Notes: generated by a model not told the origin, from the letters alone. A DNA stretch of 63,459 nt, filler included, from an uncultured bacterium (GCA_964371695.1; 3 parts of 3 records of this genome joined end to end with filler, not necessarily neighbours in it); one strand, 5' to 3'. Numbered from the whole stretch's first letter, positions 13,355 to 63,296 are shown. Translations and numbers: made by a program.

Positions 13355-14545
13355 ATGGTCAGCCGCTTTCCGCAACCCGCGATGTTTGTTGTGTCCACCA
13401 CCGTTTTTCAGGGGCTGGGCGCACTGTCGCAGGTGGCGGTGGAACTGGACCGGCGGGGCCTGAGGCGTGCTCTGGTGGTGAGCGACAAAACCCTGCTGGC
13501 TCTGGGGCACGTGGCGCGACTGGAAGAAGTGCTGGGGCCGCGCTGCGCCGGTGTTTGTGTGGACGTGGTGAGTGATTCCAGCCCCCACAGCGTAGAGGGC
13601 GCGGTGGTGGTGGGTGAGGCTTATGATGCCGATGTGGTGGTGGCCCTGGGGGGCGGCAGTGTGCTGGACACCGCCAAGCTGGCGGCGGCGGTGCTGGGCA
13701 GTGAGGCCCCCTTTGGTGCGCACCTGGGTCTGGACAATGTGCAGGGTCAGCCCTTGCCGCTTTTGGCCATTCCCACCACCACGGGCACCGGCAGCGAAGT
13801 GGCCATCACCGCCATGATCAAAGACGCCGACATGGGCAAGAAACATGTCTTCCGCGACGCCAAACTGGCCCCCGTGGCGGCTTTTCTGGACCCGGCCCTG
13901 GCCATGACACAACCCCCGGACCTGCTGGCCGCCACCGCGATGGACACGCTCTCTCACGCCATGGAGGCCCTTTTCAGCACCTGGGCCAGCCCTGCCAGCG
14001 ACGCTTTGGCGCTGGAGTCTGCCCGCCTTGTGCTGGCCCACCTGCCGGGGGCCTTGGCGGCGGATGAAAAGGAAACGCACGTGACGGCGCTGCAATGGGC
14101 GGCGTCTCTGGCGGGCATGGCTTTCAGCAATGCGGCGGTGGGGCTGGTGCATGCCTTGAGTCACACCATCGGCGCACGCCACAACATTCACCACGGCAAA
14201 ATCAACACCGTGCTGCTTGCGCCGGTGCTGCGGTTCAATCAACCCGCCATCACACCCAAGGCCGCCGCTGTGGCCCGCCGTCTGGGGCTGGCGGCCCACG
14301 CCAAAACAGAAGAAGACGCGGCGGCAAAGTTGATCACCAACATCGAAAAACTGGCCGCCTCGCTGCCATTGCCCCGTTCACTCAAGTTGCTGGGTGTGGA
14401 CCAGAAGGCGGTGCCCAACATGGCGGTGGAAACCCTGAAGGAGCCGTGCCTGTTCACCAATCCCCGCGAAGTGTATGACACCAAGGTGATTGAAGATTTG
14501 CTCCATGGCCTGTTTGACACCAATTCTGAACCGGGAATGCCGTAA
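13355..14545 (+). CDS. Iron-containing alcohol dehydrogenase
   Basis: GGGSVLDTAK, IPTTTGTGSE, DTLSHAME and GLVHALSH...HNIHHG motifs. Confidence 0.93.
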   Translation: MVSRFPQPAMFVVSTTVFQGLGALSQVAVELDRRGLRRALVVSDKTLLALGHVARLEEVLGPRCAGVCVDVVSDSSPHSVEGAVVVGEAYDADVVVALGGGSVLDTAKLAAAVLGSEAPFGAHLGLDNVQGQPLPLLAIPTTTGTGSEVAITAMIKDADMGKKHVFRDAKLAPVAAFLDPALAMTQPPDLLAATAMDTLSHAMEALFSTWASPASDALALESARLVLAHLPGALAADEKETHVTALQWAASLAGMAFSNAAVGLVHALSHTIGARHNIHHGKINTVLLAPVLRFNQPAITPKAAAVARRLGLAAHAKTEEDAAAKLITNIEKLAASLPLPRSLKLLGVDQKAVPNMAVETLKEPCLFTNPREVYDTKVIEDLLHGLFDTNSEPGMP

Positions 14546-14778
14546 GTCACAGGAAGGGATAATGGCCAAGGAACGATGACTGAACCAGTAACGGGCGAGA
14601 AGAATTGGTATGAATTCATGGATGAATTCAGTTCGAATGCCGAGGCGCAATCAGCGCCGAAGGTGTTCGCGGCAGGGAGCTGGCTTTGCCTGCGCCCTGC
14701 CGGGCCGAAGCCATTCAGGACGAATGGCAAGGCCAAGAAAAAGATTCCAATTCATGCTTTTTTGAATTGGAATCGGTA
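14518..14778 (+). mobile_element. Composite MITE-like structured element R6 (candidate CsrB/Rsm-like RNA)
   Basis: TGA-(C)ACCAATTC ... GAATTGGTA-TGA (93-bp module) ... GAATCGGTA-TGA. Homologous to R7 at 60759-61111. Several hairpins have AGGA/ATGGAT loops. Confidence 0.7.
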
Positions 14779-14795
14779 TGAGAGCGTGGCGGAAA

Positions 14796-21757: not shown

Positions 21758-21940
21758 GAAAACCTGTTTATAAAGTCAGCTGTGGACTTTAAAACCCATA
21801 ACAAAACTCCCTCCGTGGAGTTTTGTTATCGCCGAGACGGGGAATGAATCCCCGTCTCGAGCGCGAAACCCTACAGGTTTTTAACCCTCCGGGTTTCGGA
21901 TGCGGACCATCCAGGTCCGCAGATCCCCCAACAAAACCAG
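21758..21940 (-). mobile_element. MITE-like structured element R2 (cut by contig end)
   Basis: End GAAAACCTGTTT followed by five hairpins. 21864-21921 is homologous to R1 947-1003, and 21798-21899 is the reverse-complement homolog of R4 47242-47338. Confidence 0.7.
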
Positions 21941-22040
21941 NNNNNNNNNNNNNNNNNNNNNNNNNNNNNNNNNNNNNNNNNNNNTTAATTAATTAANNNN
22001 NNNNNNNNNNNNNNNNNNNNNNNNNNNNNNNNNNNNNNNN
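21941..22040. other. Artificial contig spacer (N run containing TTAATTAATTAA)
   Basis: 100-nt block with a six-frame stop linker at 21985-21996. Confidence 0.95.
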
Positions 22041-22041
22041 C

Positions 22042-25000
22042 TGCCATCGCCGGTTGCTCTCGGCCTCGAGGTCCAGCAGCGCCGTGGCAGCCTCCAGCAT
22101 CGGCGGGGCCATGAACGTGTCCGGCTCCCTTGAGTTGAACAGCAACAGCTTTACGGTGGCGGGCAATTTCGACGCCACTGGCGGCGGTGTGAACCTTGCG
22201 GCGGGCAGCCTGCTCACCCTGCAAGGCGCGAGCAACCCCTCATTCGGAACCCTCAACATGCACCCCGCCGCCACGGTGAAATACAACTGCTCGGCGGCCT
22301 GCACCGTGGCCCCCGGCACTTTCAGCAGCATCACGGTGGCGGGCACTGGACAAACCCACACATTGCTGGGCAACGTCACGGTTACCAGCGCCTCCACGGC
22401 CCTGCAACTCGAAAACAACGGCACGGTGCTGGACCTGAACGGCTTTGCCCTGAGCGCCTCGGCGGGCTCCATCACATTGGGGCAAAACGGCGCGGTCACC
22501 CCCGCGCTGCGCACCAGCGGCGGCACGTTGCAGGTGGCGGGCGACGTCAACCTTTATGACGTCAGCACGCTGGAGACGAACGGCGGCATCGTGCAGATCG
22601 CCGGGTCGCTGCAATCCGCGGCGGGCACCTTCGGCACCATCAGCATCAGCACCGGCACCGTCACGGTTTATGGCGCGATGAACGCCTCCCTCGGCTCCAC
22701 CCGCTTCACCGGCGCGGGCATGTTGAGCCTTGCGGGGCCGCTCACCAGCCTGGGCACGGTGGACATCGGCGCGGGTTACGGCACCCTCTCGCTGGGTTAT
22801 ATCGGGGGCGACACCACCCTGCCCAACACACAGTTCAACGACATTTACATCGCCACCCCCGGCCGCACGGTGTTTGCGGGCGGCGCTGGCACCGGCATGC
22901 GCAGCATGGCCCTGGCGGCGGGCACGCTGGACCAGACCGGCAACATCACCGTGAGCGGGAGCTGGAACGCCAGCGGCGGTGTCTATCAGCCTTCCCTGGC
23001 CTACAACCTCACCTTCCTGGGCATCAACTCCCAGAACATCAGCATGTCGGTGGCAAGCTGGTTCCCTAACCTTATATTTAACAAAACGGCTGGCTTGGCC
23101 ACCCTGATGACCGACGCCACCGTCAGCGGCTCCACCACCATCACCAACACGGGCAACTTCCTGGACATCGCAGGCGGCAACACCCTGTTGGCCAAGGGCG
23201 ATTTCATCGCCAGCGGCGGCACCTTTTCCCCCGCAGGCGGCAACGTGGTGATCAGTCCCAGCGTCTCGTCGGTGGGGGTGGACCTGGGGGCCGCCAACAG
23301 TTTCAACAACCTCACGGTGGACAACGGCGTGGGCAAGACCGTGAACCTCTCCAGCGACGTGGAAGTGGTGCAGGCTTTCCAAAAAACCGGCGCTGGCTCC
23401 ATGCGCACACAAACCTATCTGCTGGCGGTGAGCGGCAGCGCCACCCTGGCGGCGGGCACCCTGCGGGTGAACGACGTGACCAGCACCGGCGGTGTGCTGG
23501 CCGTGAGCGGCGTCTTCACCCAAACCGGCGGCAACCTGCATCTGGACTTTGGCGGCGACCTGTGGCTGGGAACCGGTTATGACCAGCAAAGCGGCCTTTT
23601 GGCCAACGAAACAGCCGGGGGCATACCGGCGCAGATTGGCTCGGTGAACCCCGGCGTGGTATTCCCCACCGTGGCGCTGAACGGTCAGCTCAGCAACAGT
23701 GTGGCGTTGTCCTTCAGCAGCATTGCCGCGAGCGGCGTACACATCAGCCCCAGTGCTAACGTCATTGTTTTTGACAATGTGGGTTACAGCGCCTTCCAGG
23801 GTGGGGCCACGTGTCTGGACCTGGATCGCAGCGGCCCCTCTACCGTGGCCTTTGCGGGACATGATTTTGCGGCGGCCTGCACGGTGAATGTGGACGCCAA
23901 CGGCGTGACGGCGGCGGTGGATGTCAACATGGTCAACGCCACCGGCGCGCAGGCGGGCGAAGGCTTTGACGTAGAAACCGGCACGGCCATCGTGGCCTGG
24001 GGCACACAGTTCAACGTGTCGGGCACCTGTGTGGGAGCCGCCACCCTCAAGCTGGCCCGCAATGGCGCGGTGGTGGGTACCCAGGGTTGTGGCGGCGGCG
24101 TGTTCGCCTTCAACAACACCTTTGGCGTGGCGGGCGATGTCTACACCATCTTTGACGACAACAACCTGGACGGCACCGATGACCGGGCCGTGATGTTCAA
24201 GGCCAGCGGCAGCAACGTGGCCGCCCTGGCCATGACGGGGGCCACCGAGACCCTCAAGATTTACACCGTCGGCGGCCCGCTCACCAGCGAGGAAATCGCC
24301 GTGAACCGCCCCGCCGACACCGATATGCCCTTTACCCTGGCGGGCAACACGGTGGTGGTGGACAGCTTGGCCGAACTGGAAGTGGCCACGGGGGGCACGT
24401 TCATCGTGAGCGCCTCTCACCCGGTGTCCGTCTCGGCCACGTTGCGGTCTTTTGGCGCCACGGTGGTGAACGGCGCGCTGGAAGTGGATGGGGACATCGA
24501 CGCCACCGGCGGCGGCATCACCCTGGCGAACAACGCCCAGTTGTTGGTGGGCGGGGCCATGACCTCCTTCGGCGCCTTCAACTTCAGTGACAGCGCCACC
24601 GTGGTGCTGGACAGCACGGGCGCGGGCCAGACACTGCCCGCGGCCACAGGCATCTATCCCAACCTCACCATTGATAAAGGTAGCCAGATTGCCCTGCTGG
24701 GGGCGGCCACCGTCATCAGCAGCAGCCTCACCGTGCAAAGCGGCGTGCTGGACACCAGCGGTCTGAACCTTTTCGTGAGCGGCAGCACCACCATTGCCAA
24801 CGCCGCCACCAGCCGCCTGCGCACCGCCGGCGGCACGGTGACGTTTGTCGGCAGCGTCACCAACAACAAACAGATTTGGGCCGACTTTGCCGGAGATGTC
24901 CGGTTGCTGGGCAACTACGCCAGTGCCGGCGGTTCGGAACTGGCCATTCTGGCGGCCGGGGCCACGGTGAGCGTGAGCGGCAGCTACAACAATGCGGGCA

Positions 25001-43291: not shown

Positions 43292-43391
43292 NNNNNNNNN
43301 NNNNNNNNNNNNNNNNNNNNNNNNNNNNNNNNNNNTTAATTAATTAANNNNNNNNNNNNNNNNNNNNNNNNNNNNNNNNNNNNNNNNNNNN
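43292..43391. other. Artificial contig spacer (N run containing TTAATTAATTAA)
   Basis: 100-nt block with linker at 43336-43347. Confidence 0.95.
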
Positions 43392-44239: not shown

Positions 44240-44300
44240 GAGCCTGTTCTGGATCAAAGAACTTGGTTAAAAAGTCCACGACGGACTTTTTAACAGGGGC
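44240..44300. repeat. Short MITE-like remnant R3
   Basis: GAGCCTGTT end plus hairpin GTTAAAAAGTCC-ACGAC-GGACTTTTTAAC (44266-44294), whose 21-nt core is the exact reverse complement of R1 887-907. Confidence 0.65.
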
Positions 44301-47131: not shown

Positions 47132-47346
47132 GAACCCATCTCAAAAGAATTTTGAGATGGGTTTGCGGGCCAGAGTTTGCGAGGGATCTTTCCAGATGCC
47201 CATTAGGGCATCTGGCCGAGCAAAGGCGGTAGCGGACCGCCCCGAAAACCGGAGGATAAAAAATCCGTAGGTTTTTGCGCTCGTGGCCGGGATTTACTCT
47301 CGGCCACGGCGGTCGAAAAAGTTCAGGATGGACTTTTGAGGCGAGT
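47132..47346 (+). mobile_element. MITE-like structured element R4
   Basis: End GAACCCATCTCAAAA with degenerate partner TTTTGAGGCGAGTT. 47173-47228 is nearly identical to R5 50835-50890, and 47242-47338 is homologous to R2. Confidence 0.7.
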
Positions 47347-50813: not shown

Positions 50814-51008
50814 TAAACACCCTGAAAAATCCATGAGTTTGCGAGGGTTCTTTCCAGATGCCCATTGGGGCATCTGGCCGAGCAAAGGCGATAGCAGATT
50901 TTGCCGCTTGCAGGGGTCAAAAGACCTCTGCAAAAGCGTTGTTTTGCGAGGGCTTTGCCTGAGCAAAACAGGTTGAGAAAGGCCAGGAGGGACTTTCTCA
51001 ACAACCTG
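50803..51008 (+). mobile_element. MITE-like structured element R5 (IS5/IS1182-like ends)
   Basis: TTAG-CAGGGTGTTGATAAA ... TTTCTCAACAACCTG-TTAG: TIRs match 13/15 with a 4-bp TTAG duplication. Internal hairpins are shared with R1 and R4. Confidence 0.78.
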
Positions 51009-52596: not shown

Positions 52597-54681
52597 GTGA
52601 GCGGATTTGATCTCATCAAAACCATGTCGCCCATGGGCGACCAGCCCCGGGCCATTGAGGGGTTGGTGCGGGGTGTGCATGAGGGGCTGATGCGCCAGAC
52701 CATGCTGGGGGCCACCGGCACGGGCAAAACCTTCACCATGGCCAATGTCATTCAGCAGACAGGCAGGCCCGCGCTGGTGATGGCCCACAACAAAACCCTG
52801 GCAGCCCAGTTGTGCAGCGAGTTCCGCGCCCTGTTCCCCAACAATGCGGTGGAGTTTTTCATCAGTTATTACGACTATTACCAGCCCGAAGCCTATCTGC
52901 CCTACACCGACACCTACATCGAAAAAGACGCCAGCATCAACGACGAAATCGAGCGCCTGCGCCACAGCGCCACACAGGCGCTGCTCAGCCGCCGCGACGT
53001 GATTGTGGTGGCCAGCGTGAGCGCCATTTATGGCCTGGGCAGCCCCGATGATTACCTCGCCGAAACCGTGCATTTTGCAGTGGGGCAAGAGTATCCCCGT
53101 GAAAAACTCCTGGCCAAGCTCATCGCCATGCGTTTTGAACGCAACGACACGGCGCTGGACAACGGCCAGTTCACTGTGCGCGGCGAAACCCTCACCATCT
53201 GTCCCATTCATCACGACAACCATCTGCGGCTCCAGTTTTTTGGTGATGAGCTGGAAAAAATCGATCTCTTGGACGCCACCACCGGCGAAATTCTCGAAAG
53301 CCCCAAAAGCGCCTGGATTTATCCCGCCACGCACTACATCGTGCTCAGCCAGCGGCTGGAAGGCGCCATCCGCACCATTGAACAGGAACTGGAAGAACGG
53401 CTGACGTGGTTCAAGGCAAACGGAAAATTGCTGGAAGAAGAACGCCTGCGCCAGCGGGTGCGTTATGACCTGGAAATGCTGCGGTCGCTGGGTTATTGCA
53501 GCGGCATCGAAAACTACTCCCGCCATTTCACGAACAAACAACCGGGCGAAGCGCCCTATACCCTGCTGGATTATTTCCCCAAGGATTTCCTCACTTTTAT
53601 TGACGAAAGCCACGCCACCGTGCCGCAGATCAATGGCATGTACAACGGCGACCGCGCTCGCAAAGAGGTGTTGGTGGAATACGGATTCCGCCTGCCGAGC
53701 GCCTTGGACAACAGGCCCCTGAAATTCGCTGAATTTGAACAAACGGTGGGCCAGCTTATTTTTGTGTCGGCCACGCCGGGGCCTTATGAAAAAAAGGTGA
53801 GCCAGCAGCAGGTGGAGCAGATCATTCGCCCCACCGGCCTGCTGGACCCGGAGGTGATCATCCGCCCGGTGGAGGGGCAGGTGCGGGATCTGCTGGCCGA
53901 AATCCAGGCCTGTGTGCAGAAAAAGGAACGGGTGCTGGTGACCACGCTCACCAAAAAAATGGCCGAAAATCTTGCGGAGTTCCTGAACCAGCAGGGCGTG
54001 AACGTGAAGTGGCTGCACTCGGACATTGACGCGCTGCAGCGGGTGGACATTTTGCAGGAACTGCGCCGGGGTGATTTTGATGTGCTGGTGGGCATCAACC
54101 TGTTGCGCGAGGGCCTGGACCTGCCGGAGGTGGCCCTGGTGGCGATTCTGGACGCGGACAAAGAGGGTTTTCTGCGTTCAGAGACCAGTCTGGTGCAGAC
54201 CATGGGCCGCGCTGCCCGCAACGTGAATGGCCGGGTGATTCTCTATGCCGATCAGATCACCGGCAGCATTCAGCGGGCCGTGAATGAAACAAACAGAAAG
54301 CGAAAAATCCAGGAGGCGCACAATCAGAAACACGGCATCACGCCCCGCAGCATCGAAAAAGAAATCCACCAGACCCTGCGCCTGATGGGGGTGCCCGAAG
54401 CCAAAAGCCCCAGCGGTCTGGTGCCCGGCGGAGACCCCGACGCACTGGGGGGGCAACACCTCAAGGAACTGGTGGATGAGTTGTATACGTCAATGAAACA
54501 GGCCGCCGATGACCTGGATTTTGAGCGGGCGGTGCAATTGCGCGAGGAATGGAAAAGCGTGAAACGCGCACTCAATCGCAAGCTGTATGGCAAAGACACC
54601 GACAGCGCCACGCCCACCGTGATACAGCTCAAGGCCCCCCGCAACGCCCGCCGGGGCACGGCCAAGGGGCCTCGCGGGTAA
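52597..54681 (+). CDS. uvrB: Excinuclease ABC subunit B
   Basis: GDQPRAI, GATGTGKT, HNKTLAAQL, SYYDYYQPEAY, DESH and GINLLREGLD motifs; start GTG 52597. Confidence 0.97.
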   Translation: MSGFDLIKTMSPMGDQPRAIEGLVRGVHEGLMRQTMLGATGTGKTFTMANVIQQTGRPALVMAHNKTLAAQLCSEFRALFPNNAVEFFISYYDYYQPEAYLPYTDTYIEKDASINDEIERLRHSATQALLSRRDVIVVASVSAIYGLGSPDDYLAETVHFAVGQEYPREKLLAKLIAMRFERNDTALDNGQFTVRGETLTICPIHHDNHLRLQFFGDELEKIDLLDATTGEILESPKSAWIYPATHYIVLSQRLEGAIRTIEQELEERLTWFKANGKLLEEERLRQRVRYDLEMLRSLGYCSGIENYSRHFTNKQPGEAPYTLLDYFPKDFLTFIDESHATVPQINGMYNGDRARKEVLVEYGFRLPSALDNRPLKFAEFEQTVGQLIFVSATPGPYEKKVSQQQVEQIIRPTGLLDPEVIIRPVEGQVRDLLAEIQACVQKKERVLVTTLTKKMAENLAEFLNQQGVNVKWLHSDIDALQRVDILQELRRGDFDVLVGINLLREGLDLPEVALVAILDADKEGFLRSETSLVQTMGRAARNVNGRVILYADQITGSIQRAVNETNRKRKIQEAHNQKHGITPRSIEKEIHQTLRLMGVPEAKSPSGLVPGGDPDALGGQHLKELVDELYTSMKQAADDLDFERAVQLREEWKSVKRALNRKLYGKDTDSATPTVIQLKAPRNARRGTAKGPRG

Positions 54682-59783: not shown

Positions 59784-60758
59784 GTGCCAAAGGGTAAAAA
59801 AAGGGGATGGATCGGCTTGCCGGGTGTTCTTTGGCGTGCCGCTGGCCTGGGGTGTGTGGTTTTTGGGTTGGTGGCGCTGGGTTTTGTGGCTAGGGCCAAG
59901 GCGGGTGAGGGGAAAAGTCTACGGGTGACCGTGGGGGTGTATTACGGTTTTGGGGCTACGCAGGACACCGACCTGAAAATGCTTCACCTGGAGCTCCTCA
60001 AACGCCTGGGGGGCAAACTGGGGGTTTCTTATACCCTGCGGGTTTATCGGTCTTTGGATCTTTTTGAAACGGCAGTAAAAAACGAAGAGCTGGATTTTGT
60101 GCAGGCCCCTCTGGGGGGTGCGCGCATGGTGCCTGCGGCCATCAAGGCCGGTTATAAACCGGTGCTTTTGGTAAGTGCGCGCAACCGGCGCACCGACCAG
60201 ATGTGTGTGTTCACCCGCAGCGGAAAAACCCTGTCGAAATGGAAAGACCTGAAAGGCAAAAAGCTTCTGGTTGGCCCCGAAAAAATGGCCTATTTTCTTT
60301 TGCACAAGGAGATGGGAAAGGATCCACGGGCTTTTGTGGAGGAGATGATTCCCGTTTCCAGCGCGTTTTCTGGTTTTTATGGTCTGATGCTGGGGCAGGG
60401 GGACGGGGTGTTCAGCCACCGCGTGGTCTATGACAGCCTCAAGGAGATCAACCCCGGCGCGGTGGCGCGCATCCAGCGGGGGGTGTGTGCCGAGCCGCCG
60501 CTTCCCATGCCCATTCTGCTGGTGCATCCGCGGGTTCCCAAAAAACATCTTGCAGACACCGTGAAACTTGCCCGTCAGGCCGAAAAGGAACCCCTCTTCA
60601 AACCCTACCGCCCGCTCATCAAAAAGTTCCACATCAAGGTGGTGGAGCCGGAAAAAGCTGATTACGAGCCCATGCTGCGCCTGTGGAAAAAAGCTCACGA
60701 AGAAGGCTGGGAAAAACACTACAACACGTGGCGCAAGGCTTTGGCAGCCGGGTCTTGA
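59784..60758 (+). CDS. PhnD/SsuA-like periplasmic substrate-binding protein
   Basis: N-terminal signal/TM, ELDFV, GYKPVL, KDLKGKKL and P.PILLVHPRVP pattern. Confidence 0.65.
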   Translation: MPKGKKRGWIGLPGVLWRAAGLGCVVFGLVALGFVARAKAGEGKSLRVTVGVYYGFGATQDTDLKMLHLELLKRLGGKLGVSYTLRVYRSLDLFETAVKNEELDFVQAPLGGARMVPAAIKAGYKPVLLVSARNRRTDQMCVFTRSGKTLSKWKDLKGKKLLVGPEKMAYFLLHKEMGKDPRAFVEEMIPVSSAFSGFYGLMLGQGDGVFSHRVVYDSLKEINPGAVARIQRGVCAEPPLPMPILLVHPRVPKKHLADTVKLARQAEKEPLFKPYRPLIKKFHIKVVEPEKADYEPMLRLWKKAHEEGWEKHYNTWRKALAAGS

Positions 60759-61111
60759 TACCAATTCTGATCCGAGATGTCATTAAACCACCGAAAGGGT
60801 CGGCTGGCAGGAAGCCTGAATGAAATCAGGAAGAGATGAGAAGAATTGGTATGAATTCATGGATGAATTCGCTTCGAACATCAAGGCCCGGACGCACCAG
60901 GAGGGCGCGTGAAGCCCGCCGAGGGGACAATGTCCCAGAAGACGGTGGTTTCAAAAGTTCAGGAAGAACTTTTGAAACAATCCCAAAAGGCCGCCGATGT
61001 TCGCGGCGCAAGCGGGCTTTGCCTGCGCCGCGCCGGGCCGCAGCCATTCACGACGAATGGCAAGGCCAAATAAAAGATTCCAATTCCTGCTGTCTGGAAT
61101 TGGAATCGGTA
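60759..61111 (+). mobile_element. Composite MITE-like structured element R7 (candidate CsrB/Rsm-like RNA)
   Basis: TGA-TACCAATTC ... GAATTGGTA-TGA (93 bp) ... GAATCGGTA. Homolog of R6 with an extra ~90-bp hairpin cassette related to R1. Confidence 0.72.
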
Positions 61112-61118
61112 TCAGGGG

Positions 61119-63296
61119 CTATCGGGTGGGTGGTTTTTCATGCAGCGGTGTTATTTCGATACCCTGCATCTCCACGGCGGCGGCAGACCGGTTTTCGATT
61201 TCAAGAATGGCCCTGCCGGGTTTTGAAATCTCAAAAGTGGTGTCTCTCAGTTCGTGAGAAAGACGCACATCCTGCGCATGGCCATTCAGTGTCACCGACA
61301 AAAGCGCGTGGGTGGGAAAATTCAGACGCCAGAAAAAGTTGTACGAACCGGCTTTGGAAAAATAAAGGCTGTAGGCCACGCGGGTGTGGTGGCCCAGCGT
61401 GAGGGCGGGCCATTCTCCTGCTGAGCGCGGGGGCAACACGGCAACCAGGCTTTCGTGTCCCCTGGCGTAGTTGGGCGGAAAAAGCCTGTCCAGCGGCCAG
61501 AAACGGAGTTCTTTCTGGCGATGAAAGGCCACCCATGGCCCCATGGAAAAACCCGTCCAGTGCAGGTAGTGGTTGAAATAGTGGTGACCAAAGCGGGTGG
61601 GGTCGGTCTGGGCGTGCTGGATGCGCGGACGGTCGTTGCGCAGCAGAAAACAGGCCCTGGGCGGCTCAAACACAGATGCCTCTGGCGCGCTGTGATAAAA
61701 CACGGCCCCCCGCGCCCGGCAGGCATAATTGCCCCCCATCGGCAGCACCGTTTTTTGGGCCTTGAGGGCAGCGCCGTGATAACCCACCGGCTGGTTGAAC
61801 AGATAAAGCGCCAGGGGCGACTGACTGCCGGGCAGCAGGATTTCTTTGGCTCCCAGGCTGCGCAGCCACGGCCTGAGCCAGGGGGTGAACCCCTGTTTGT
61901 CCACGGTTTGCCTGTCGGCAATGTCTGGATAAACCACCACGGCGCGGCGGCCAGCCCCCTGCAACGCCAGGGCCAGTTGCTCTTTGTCATTGGCCCACAG
62001 GGCGGGCAGACGCGGAGCCACAAAACCCATGGGGGTGCGCTCCAGGCCGGTGTAAATCACCCGTTCAATGTCAAAACGCTTCAGCGTTTGTGCGGCCAGA
62101 CGGTAAGGGACTTCTTCGTGTCTGCGCCAGAGCACCAGTGCCCTGAGCGTGGCGGGCGGGGCAACCAGCGAAGCGGCCAGCAGGCCCACGAGCCCCAAGG
62201 CGGCTGCCTGTAAAAAACGGGGCAAGGGGGCCTTTTCGGCTTTACGCCACAGGGTGTCCAGGCCAAAGGCCACCAAGGCCAGATAGGGCCCCAGGGCGCT
62301 GAGGAAATACCGTATCTGATAAAAACTGTTGACCCGGATGAGCATGGCCAGCACGGCGTAAAGCACCACCAGAATGTAGGCCAGCAGCAGGGTGCCGGTG
62401 TCTTTGTGCTCCCTGCGCCACAAAAACAGGCCCGCCACGCCCGCGCCAAACAGGCCCAGGCAACTCGCGGTATACACACCAAACCAGGGGCCAGCGTAAC
62501 CCCTCATGGCGGGGCCGGTGTGCAGCATCAACAGGGTTTGCCACATGGTGAGAAAAATTTCGCCCAGGTCGCCAGAGGGCACCAGAAAAGGGAACCGCCT
62601 GCTGGGCGCATCCAGCATGGGGTGCAGCCACAACAACAAAAGTGGCAACACGGCCAGCAGCAGCGCACCGGTCAAACCCAGCCACCGGCGGCGCACGGGC
62701 AGGTGGGGCGTGCGCAGGGCCACCACCAGCAGCAGCAGCCATTCCACCGAGAGTTCCAGCAGGCCCAGATAATGCACCCACACCAGCACCATGCCGTTCA
62801 GCGCATAGGCCAGCAGGTCGCGGGAGCGGCCTTCCTGAATGTAAGCCAGCAGGCTGGCCAGCGAAAAAGTGGTGAGGGCCAGCAGTAATGTGTACATGCG
62901 GGCGGTTTGGGCGTAATGCAGAAAAAACAGGGAGCCGCTCAAAAGCCCCGCCGCCAGCAGGCCTGTGCGTACGCCCCCAAGCCGACGGCCCAGCAGAAAA
63001 ATCGCCCAGAGGGCCAATAGCCCAAATATCACACTGGGGACACGGGCCGCAAAGGGGCTTACGCCTGCCACAGCGCTCCAGGCTTTCAGCAGCAGGTGAA
63101 AACCGGGGGGGTGCGGATCGTTTCGCGGCAACTGGCGGAGCATGTCCTGCACCGGCAGTTCGGTAAGGCCCACCTGCACGGCTTCATCAATGCGCAACGG
63201 TTGAAAACCCAACCCCGGCATCACCAGCAGCAGATACCACGCCGCCAGCAACATCAAAAACCATCCTGTTTTTGTGGGCTTCAAGGTGCCTATCAT
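61119..63296 (-). CDS. GT-C family 39 (PMT/ArnT-like) membrane glycosyltransferase
   Basis: LRIDEA, NDPHPPGFHLLL, ARVPSV, YAQTARMY and HYLG motifs followed by many TM helices. Confidence 0.85.
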   Translation of the reverse strand: MIGTLKPTKTGWFLMLLAAWYLLLVMPGLGFQPLRIDEAVQVGLTELPVQDMLRQLPRNDPHPPGFHLLLKAWSAVAGVSPFAARVPSVIFGLLALWAIFLLGRRLGGVRTGLLAAGLLSGSLFFLHYAQTARMYTLLLALTTFSLASLLAYIQEGRSRDLLAYALNGMVLVWVHYLGLLELSVEWLLLLVVALRTPHLPVRRRWLGLTGALLLAVLPLLLLWLHPMLDAPSRRFPFLVPSGDLGEIFLTMWQTLLMLHTGPAMRGYAGPWFGVYTASCLGLFGAGVAGLFLWRREHKDTGTLLLAYILVVLYAVLAMLIRVNSFYQIRYFLSALGPYLALVAFGLDTLWRKAEKAPLPRFLQAAALGLVGLLAASLVAPPATLRALVLWRRHEEVPYRLAAQTLKRFDIERVIYTGLERTPMGFVAPRLPALWANDKEQLALALQGAGRRAVVVYPDIADRQTVDKQGFTPWLRPWLRSLGAKEILLPGSQSPLALYLFNQPVGYHGAALKAQKTVLPMGGNYACRARGAVFYHSAPEASVFEPPRACFLLRNDRPRIQHAQTDPTRFGHHYFNHYLHWTGFSMGPWVAFHRQKELRFWPLDRLFPPNYARGHESLVAVLPPRSAGEWPALTLGHHTRVAYSLYFSKAGSYNFFWRLNFPTHALLSVTLNGHAQDVRLSHELRDTTFEISKPGRAILEIENRSAAAVEMQGIEITPLHEKPPTR

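Follow-up and report, generated by a model that had tools for sequence, protein, structure and literature searches.

The window analysed here is a stretch of DNA of 63,459 nucleotides from an uncultured bacterium, made up of three contigs chained by linkers with stops in all six frames (N...TTAATTAATTAA...N) at 21938-22043 and 43292-43391. It contains two copies of a repeated element, R7 and R6, each of which lies directly at the 3' end of a plus-strand gene and is sense to that gene. The copies, together with the genes on either side of R7, are as follows.

60755-61115, plus strand: R7, whole repeat copy, 361 bp (limits set from the R6/R7 alignment)
14514-14783, plus strand: R6, short repeat copy, 270 bp (limits set from the R6/R7 alignment)
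59784-60758, plus strand: gene 5' of R7, a phosphonate-type periplasmic binding protein (phnD-like)
61119-63296, minus strand: gene 3' of R7, a PMT_2 glycosyltransferase, converging, with its stop facing R7

The left end of R7 includes the TGA stop (60756-60758) of the phosphonate-binding-protein gene. R6 is situated between an Fe-alcohol-dehydrogenase (ADH) gene and aroA, and the ADH frame extends 31 nt inside the element to a TAA stop at 14543-45; the Pfam domain match of the ADH finishes at residue 392 of 408, and R6 starts at about residue 399. The two copies align over their full length with 77% column identity and are separated by one indel of about 95 nt, which represents the extra middle of R7. 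They share two identical blocks, ACCAATTCTGA and the 33-nt GAGAAGAATTGGTATGAATTCATGGATGAATTC, and a 3' module of roughly 100 nt that is 90% identical. We also note that a further repeat of the window, R2 (21798-21937), sits at a contig end beside the linker at 21938-22043, and that repeats are probably the cause of the assembly breaks at the contig ends of the window.

Anatomy and folding of the element

Alignment and folding of the two copies resolve the element into six stem-loops, P1 to P6, set between short inverted ends.

60755-60767, no strand assigned: left inverted end of R7, TTGATACCAATTC (read from the sequence)
61103-61115, no strand assigned: right inverted end of R7, GAATCGGTATCAG (read from the sequence)
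60760-60850, plus strand: P1 domain, with the long-range stem ACCAATTCT/AGAATTGGT (60760-68 with 60842-50), from the alignment fold
60852-60871, plus strand: P2 hairpin GAAUUC-AUGGAU-GAAUUC, with a UGGA tetraloop in the fold, the same in R6
14611-14630, plus strand: P2 in R6, UGGA loop
60875-61003, plus strand: P3, conserved basal stems (60875-82/60996-61003 and 60885-88/60989-92) around a variable middle, with two compensatory pairs
60889-60988, plus strand: middle insert in the tip of P3, carried by R7 but not by R6
61004-61035, plus strand: P4 hairpin, UUU loop
61036-61067, plus strand: P5 hairpin GGCC..GCCAUUC-ACGAC-GAAUGGC..GGCC
14710-14728, plus strand: P5 core in R6, AGGAC loop
61066-61107, minus strand: region of P6, a 12-bp terminal hairpin (61076-61107), terminator-like, with the minus-strand tail TTTTATTT
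14735-14774, minus strand: region of P6 in R6 (hairpin 14743-14774), terminator-like, with the tail TTTTTCTT

The inverted ends are short, imperfect and of the ATACCAAT type: TTGATACCAATTC and the reverse-complemented GAATCGGTATCAG agree at 11 of 13 positions in R7, and the figure for R6 is 9 of 13. Further copies of the element, seen in the loose ends of metagenome contigs, have left starts of the form ...TTCATACCAATTC and an alternative right end, which gives ATACCAAT at both ends, and positions 61112-61116 are the point at which many metagenome contigs cease to match R7. Within these limits the interior of P1 is purine-rich and about half conserved between R6 and R7, and nowhere is the family less conserved (depth 5-20); this interior holds two of the three CAGGAAG motifs of R7 (60808 and 60827). 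The middle insert of R7 contains hairpins of its own: an imperfect one with AGGAG (60892-60910), one formed by GGGGAC and GTCCC, and a 13-bp hairpin with an AGGAA loop (60948-60978) that recurs elsewhere in the window as a cassette. R7 and R6 differ in P4 at two pairs, one with a compensatory change (C-G to G-C) and the other altered on one side (G-C to G-U), and in P6 by one compensatory change (C-G to A-U).

Both copies fold far more stably than shuffled sequence on either strand, with z-scores of -7.2 (plus) and -8.6 (minus) for R7 and -6.6 (plus) and -6.4 (minus) for R6, and none of the shuffles was as stable. As the folding is equally strong on both strands, the structure tells neither which strand is relevant nor whether RNA matters at all. 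Transcription signals were also sought in the sequence. No promoter-like site was found in R6 or R7 by a scan with the sigma-70 consensus only, which may not be that of the host, and neither copy has a plus-strand terminator-like site, P6 having no plus-strand T-run. On the minus strand P6 and its T-run are terminator-like in both copies, and in R7 this site sits 11 nt past the stop of the converging PMT_2 gene.

These results bear on the idea that the element is a multi-copy structured non-coding RNA with signals of its own and a plus-strand product. In its favour, RNAalifold on the two copies gave 78 common pairs, 8 of which carry compensatory changes, several G-U pairs occur on the plus strand in the alignment fold, and the plus strand of R6 folds 12 kcal/mol better than its minus strand. 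However, the two strands of R7 fold equally well, promoter-like site and plus-strand terminator are both absent, each copy starts on or inside the end of the upstream ORF, and the variable modules and ends are of the sort typical of mobile repeats, and we regard an independent RNA gene as very improbable.

Copies in sediment metagenomes

Evidence for further copies came from the contigs of four DNA runs of one sediment-metagenome study, matched to 60300-61500 (1.2 kb), which yielded 61, 77, 19 and 62 matching contig records per run; no RNA run is listed as containing this stretch. Summed depth reached 186, 409, 27 and 275 over block B and P2 (60833-73), and 330, 486, 89 and 272 over the 3' module (60997-61037), as compared to a depth of about 2-5 in the unique flanks of R7 in the same runs. 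The individual matching contigs mostly have depths of 2.5-6.6, as in the flanks. Summed contig depth is not a copy number, and other organisms may contribute to it; the pattern nevertheless suggests tens of copies or more, probably within this population. The further copies have different flanks and different middles within the same sediment metagenomes, and thus the proposal of the sequence-only reading that R6 and R7 are copies of one repeated element with inverted ends is borne out, by two aligned copies and by many more in the metagenomes.

The way in which these copies differ from R7 is modular. At thirteen listed joints, which run from about 60870-60893 to 60985-61034, the middle is shortened by 93-164 nt, and several of these joints carry different letters in between, the R6-type middle among these; among the loose contig ends are 5' interiors of other kinds, as well as a second variant of P6 (CCAATGAACATTC...). 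The whole element is excised at none of the 13 joints, so no empty site was seen among them. The P2 region (60842-60873) is the opposite extreme: even where depth rises to 409, no listed variant there reaches 10%.

A 29-nt block B pattern had no match among JGI metagenome contigs, and a scan of genome contigs with a pattern for P6, which is a variable module, had as its sole match a hairpin in the Ca. Villigracilis affinis metagenome-assembled genome (MAG). This hairpin has the same 14-bp stem as P6 of R7, CCGATTCCAATTCC...GGAATTGGAATCGG (L001 3183-3219, equal to G001:C21:163185-163217), but it is single-copy and lies between two genes; it was rejected as a member of the family and is probably a coincidence or an ordinary terminator.

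A protein search with the frame of the 3' module found four unnamed ORFs (P0121-P0124) of 57-113 aa in NCBI and ENA, on contigs of up to 75.6 kb, all of which traverse block B and the 3' module of further copies. A small protein of the form EKNW(Y/H)EFMDEF...FAAQAGFACAAP, its first part being the reading of block B, was considered and rejected, given that R7 has two in-frame stops and that R6 shifts frame past VFAA. The ORF calls of 57-113 aa are thus likely spurious annotations due to the repeat. One protein cluster also contained an unrelated 902-aa kinase, which has no likeness to the element by eye and was set aside.

GGA loops and their bearing on CsrA

The sequence-only reading had gone further and likened R7 and R6 to CsrB/RsmZ-type sponge RNAs packaged inside mobile ends, on the strength of A(N)GGA motifs in hairpin loops. 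Every string it quoted for the two copies lies where it was placed: in R7 GGCAGGAAGCC at 60806-60816, TCAGGAAGA at 60826-60834, GAATTC-ATGGAT-GAATTC at 60853-70, ACGCACC-AGGAG-GGCGCGT at 60892-60910, the 13-bp AGGAA hairpin at 60948-78 and the strong terminal hairpin, of 12 bp, at 61076-61107; and in R6 CAGGAAG at 14550, the hairpin at 14611-30 and GCCATTC-AGGAC-GAATGGC at 14710-28. The hairpins quoted for R1 and R2 are likewise present, on the minus strand.

The plus strand of R7 has nine GGA, of which only those at 60861 (P2) and 60962 (the cassette) have an unpaired probability of about 1; the one at 60900 is unpaired at about 0.42. At 60810 and 60829 the G's are mostly paired, the minimum free energy (MFE) structure at 60810 pairing CAGG with CCUG, and the 2-bp and 3-bp stems that had been drawn around AGGAA at these two positions are lost, including the stem of TC-AGGAA-GA, which does not form. 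Of eight GGA on the plus strand of R6, those at 14620 and 14718 are in hairpin loops and three are in the open 5' interior, while the AGGGA that had been read as a GC-AGGGA-GC loop is paired. The placing of GGA in hairpin loops therefore holds in part, for two robust sites per copy.

We counted GGA in the hairpin loops of MFE structures (stem of at least 4, loop of at most 8) and compared each copy with 200 shuffles. Two per copy stand against shuffle averages of 0.28 and 0.23 (about 0.25 overall), and 5 of 200 shuffles reached two for each copy. No loop GGA occurs on the minus strand of either copy, which supports the claim that the GGA-bearing loops keep to a single strand, the one that is sense to the gene upstream. 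The sponge-type motif CAGGA[ACT]G occurs 13 times on the plus and 28 times on the minus strand of the whole window, including three times in R7 and twice in R6. Taken together, the enrichment of this motif and of loop GGA is real but modest, and post hoc.

Variation among the copies weakens the GGA pattern further. As had been remarked, some loops read ACGAC, and this is the P5 loop of most copies; in the four runs the share of depth taken by AGGAC at P5 (C61051>G) is 6%, 4%, 16% and 3%, and that of ACGAT is 16-20% in three of them. The common short form of the element has UGGA in P2, AAUCA or AACAA in P3, UUU in P4, ACGAC in P5 and an 8-nt loop free of GGA in P6. With P2 as its sole GGA loop, the short form implies one GGA loop in the commonest copies.

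Nor do covariance models lend support. Rfam gave no match over the whole window at the gathering score; in a permissive search the best Csr/Rsm model was RsmY at 10.4 bits (cut-off 57; E = 4.1; 60796-60872), amid miRNA-type noise, and R6 had no Csr/Rsm match. CsrB and CsrC are reported to have 18 and 9 CsrA sites; in the SELEX consensus for CsrA, RUACARGGAUGU, both ACA and GGA are invariant, the GGA being placed in the loop of a hairpin (PMC4347634). R6 and R7 share with CsrB, CsrC and RsmX/Y/Z (Rfam clan CL00106) their one-strand GGA loops, a P2 near the consensus and the CAGGAAG motif, but they differ in having one to two robust GGA loops per copy as compared to those 18 and 9 sites (PMC4347634), no model match, no promoter or terminator of their own, and many dispersed copies. 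The sponge claim thus failed: R6 and R7 are not of the CsrB/RsmZ class, having no model match, too few sites, none of the signals of a stand-alone gene, and too many copies.

A weaker form of the idea deserves separate weighing, namely that the repeat carries CsrA/RsmA-type hairpins (P2 and AGGAN) into many UTRs, with the copies forming a dispersed, mRNA-embedded CsrA sink or regulon. P2 (AUUCAUGGAUGA) matches the consensus at 9 of 12 positions with its GGA in the loop (consensus from PMC4347634), and has no variant at 10% or more even at the highest depth; invariance and near-consensus together make one point in favour of CsrA, if a small chance. To this may be added the three CAGGAAG of R7 and the two CAGGA[AC]G of R6, out of 41 on the two strands of the window, GGA loops on the plus strand only with both copies sense to the upstream gene, and loop GGA that persists despite changes at position 5 (60965 A>G, 60903 G>T). 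Against it, the ACA that is said to be invariant in SELEX (PMC4347634) is UCA in P2; P5 mostly reads ACGAC, with AGGAC at 3-16% of depth; the 5' module with CAGGAAG is the least conserved of the family; two robust GGA loops per copy dwindle to P2 alone in the commonest short form; the hairpin cassettes interchange ACGAC and AGGAN, one of them (44266-94) being antisense to its genes; and the RsmY score is as poor as noted. No csrA was found in the window, as had been stated, either among the 35 ORFs scanned or by a six-frame scan with a short motif. In the MITE and REP literature outside subscription journals we found no report of CsrA sites on mobile repeats. The resemblance to a CsrA site stands for one hairpin, P2; scattered CsrA sites seem to us very unlikely.

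A wider view of the loops comes from hairpin cassettes elsewhere in the window. Over 23 nt the 13-bp AGGAA hairpin of R7 has 91% identity with a hairpin in a different repeat, R4 (47317-47339), and both belong to a cassette, AAAAGTYC-A(C/G)GAN-GRACTTTT, found at five places.

882-912: cassette
44266-44294: cassette, antisense to both neighbouring genes
47315-47340: cassette
50970-51000: cassette
60948-60978: cassette in the middle insert of R7

The cassette occurs in several repeat families and once alone, its loop being ACGAC or AGGAN, which makes the repeats of the genome mosaics of common hairpin cassettes. All of the pentaloops are of the form A-(C/G)-G-A-N (AGGAA, AGGAG, AGGAT, AGGAC and ACGAC), with copies differing in the fifth letter (60965 A>G, 60903 G>T, 61054 C>T) or in having C or G as the second. 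A UGGA tetraloop sits on differing stems in at least three repeat families: R1/R2 (984-1003 and 21901-21), the GTAG palindromes (2407-26 and 2464-79), and P2 of R6/R7. The A-S-G-A pattern looks like a constraint on the loops, albeit in a small sample and spotted post hoc. However, C at position 2 abolishes GGA, and the cassette at 44266-94 is antisense; the loop pattern is better explained by recognition through the mobilising enzyme or through some protein that is not CsrA, or by common ancestry of the cassettes, than by CsrA. The alternative that the sequence-only reading itself had offered, in which a transposase or nuclease recognises the loops, is at least as good a fit as scattered CsrA sites.

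R1 (870-1047) and R2 have a common module, ...GTTTTTAAC..CGG.TTTCGG.TGCGG..CATCCA..CCGCA, and R4 (47165-47240) and R5 (50838-50900) have in common GTTTGCGAGGG.TCTTTCCAGATGCCCATT.GGGCATCTGGCCGAGCAAAGGCG; these modules imply at least three further repeat families within 63 kb. Palindromes headed GTAGGCGCGGTG lie at 295-322, 2393-2424 and 2464-2495, the latter two being an inverted pair with 39 nt between them and with loops of TCCA and TGGA; those at 295-322 and 2393-2495, which start with GTAG, are presumably REP/REPIN-like, to judge by their look.

Kinship with known elements and interpretation

REP/REPIN elements, which are associated with RAYTs, are GTAG-headed imperfect palindromes of 20-40 nt, often in inverted pairs; R6 and R7 do not have this GTAG-headed palindrome form. 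At a more general level the element resembles MITE, ERIC, Correia and BIME/REP elements in being short, non-coding, multi-copy, hairpin-forming and sited in UTRs, with inverted ends, as those families are outlined in PMC3049150. The MITE features found are a non-coding length of 361 or 270 bp, inverted ends (11/13 and 9/13) and many dispersed copies. It differs from MITEs in that there is no clear target-site duplication and no empty site among the 13 listed joints; the bases around CCAATTC...GAATCGG are TA/TA in R7 and CA/TA in R6, and in these two copies they could belong to the ends.

The BOX elements of Streptococcus pneumoniae (boxA-boxB(n)-boxC), which with RUP and SPRITE are small interspersed repeats, provide a close parallel in layout. 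Like BOX as described in PMC3049150, the element is composite, with conserved end modules, a variable, separately folding middle and many stem-loops; it lies close behind genes, extends or modifies ORFs, and has some terminator-like members. There is, however, no sequence relation, the middle of R7 is an insert in the tip of P3 rather than a tandem boxB array, and the host is unrelated, and we therefore call the element BOX-like by analogy of architecture only, implying no homology.

Alternatively, the element might be a gene-less derivative of the IS200/IS605 type, mobile as single-stranded DNA via subterminal hairpins and possibly with a guide-RNA-like 3' scaffold. IS200/IS605-derived PATE elements have subterminal hairpins and insert 3' of a fixed tetra- or pentanucleotide, and ISDra2 inserts 3' of TTGAT. 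The likeness lies in a strong subterminal hairpin at the right end (P6), a strand-specific orientation, a conserved and structured 3' module of about 115 nt, and, at the left junction, a similar pentanucleotide 5' of ACCAATTC in three copies (TTGAT, TTGAC and TTCAT), which may yet be mere part of the inverted end. The IS200/IS605 family is typically without inverted ends, however, and those of R7 match at 11 of 13 positions; the HEARO and IS605-associated RNA families of Rfam are unmatched at E up to 10; and no Y1 transposase (tnpA), tnpB or iscB was seen in the window. We consider such a derivation quite unlikely.

On balance R7 and R6 are probably copies of a lineage-specific, non-autonomous, non-coding modular interspersed repeat, which resembles MITEs in ends and copy number and BOX in its modular build. 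ORF scans found no transposase gene in the window, and the copies may owe their spread to a transposase, supplied in trans, for which the ends, or the invariant P2 and the 3' block, or both, serve as recognition sites. Placed behind a stop codon, the element would be co-transcribed as a 3' UTR, where its stacked hairpins could slow 3' exonucleases and shield the 3' end of the transcript, and P6 with its T-run could halt transcription from the opposite strand. UTR repeats of the ERIC, Correia and BIME kind are reported to affect mRNA decay or attenuation (PMC3049150). The GGA, UGGA and ASGAN loops would then be inherited features of the cassettes and possibly marks for the mobilising protein, as opposed to a CsrA-titrating array. 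Against a plain mobile repeat, that P2 is invariant, A-S-G-A kept and GGA confined to one strand suggests some constraint on the loops beyond purely selfish spread.

There is also a more speculative reading, in which the mobile repeat has put P2 and optional AGGAN cassettes behind dozens of genes and the resulting mRNA pool acts as a dispersed sink or regulon for CsrA or another loop-reading protein. We hold this to be highly unlikely. Were it true, the UGGA and ASGAN loops on different stems in unrelated repeat families would point to one trans-acting loop reader, and an RNA sink carried on repeats would amount to a novel regulatory arrangement, as CsrA antagonists beyond the Gammaproteobacteria are mostly proteins (FliW).

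As it stands, the element is an ordinary lineage-specific small interspersed repeat, useful mainly for annotation: it explains, for this MAG, the ORF extension at the ADH tail, the spurious small ORFs and the breaks between contigs. Its importance would grow should some protein prove to read the shared loops, P2 being invariant and the UGGA and ASGAN loops recurring in at least three repeat families of the window.

The nearest match to the UvrB encoded at 52606-54678 among 5.8 billion proteins is 61% identical, and the best matches are scattered over Bacillota, Armatimonadota and others, with the Villigracilis genome at 57%; such identities of at most 61%, spread across phyla, place the host in a deep, poorly sampled lineage. 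R6, R7 and the neighbouring repeats thus provide a first look at genome architecture in this branch. As a separate observation, 22054-42465 on the plus strand is a single open frame of 6803 aa that fills nearly a contig and has internal repeats of about 4.45 kb with 60-78% identity; its sequence has the look of a very large repetitive protein of the surface or adhesin-like kind.
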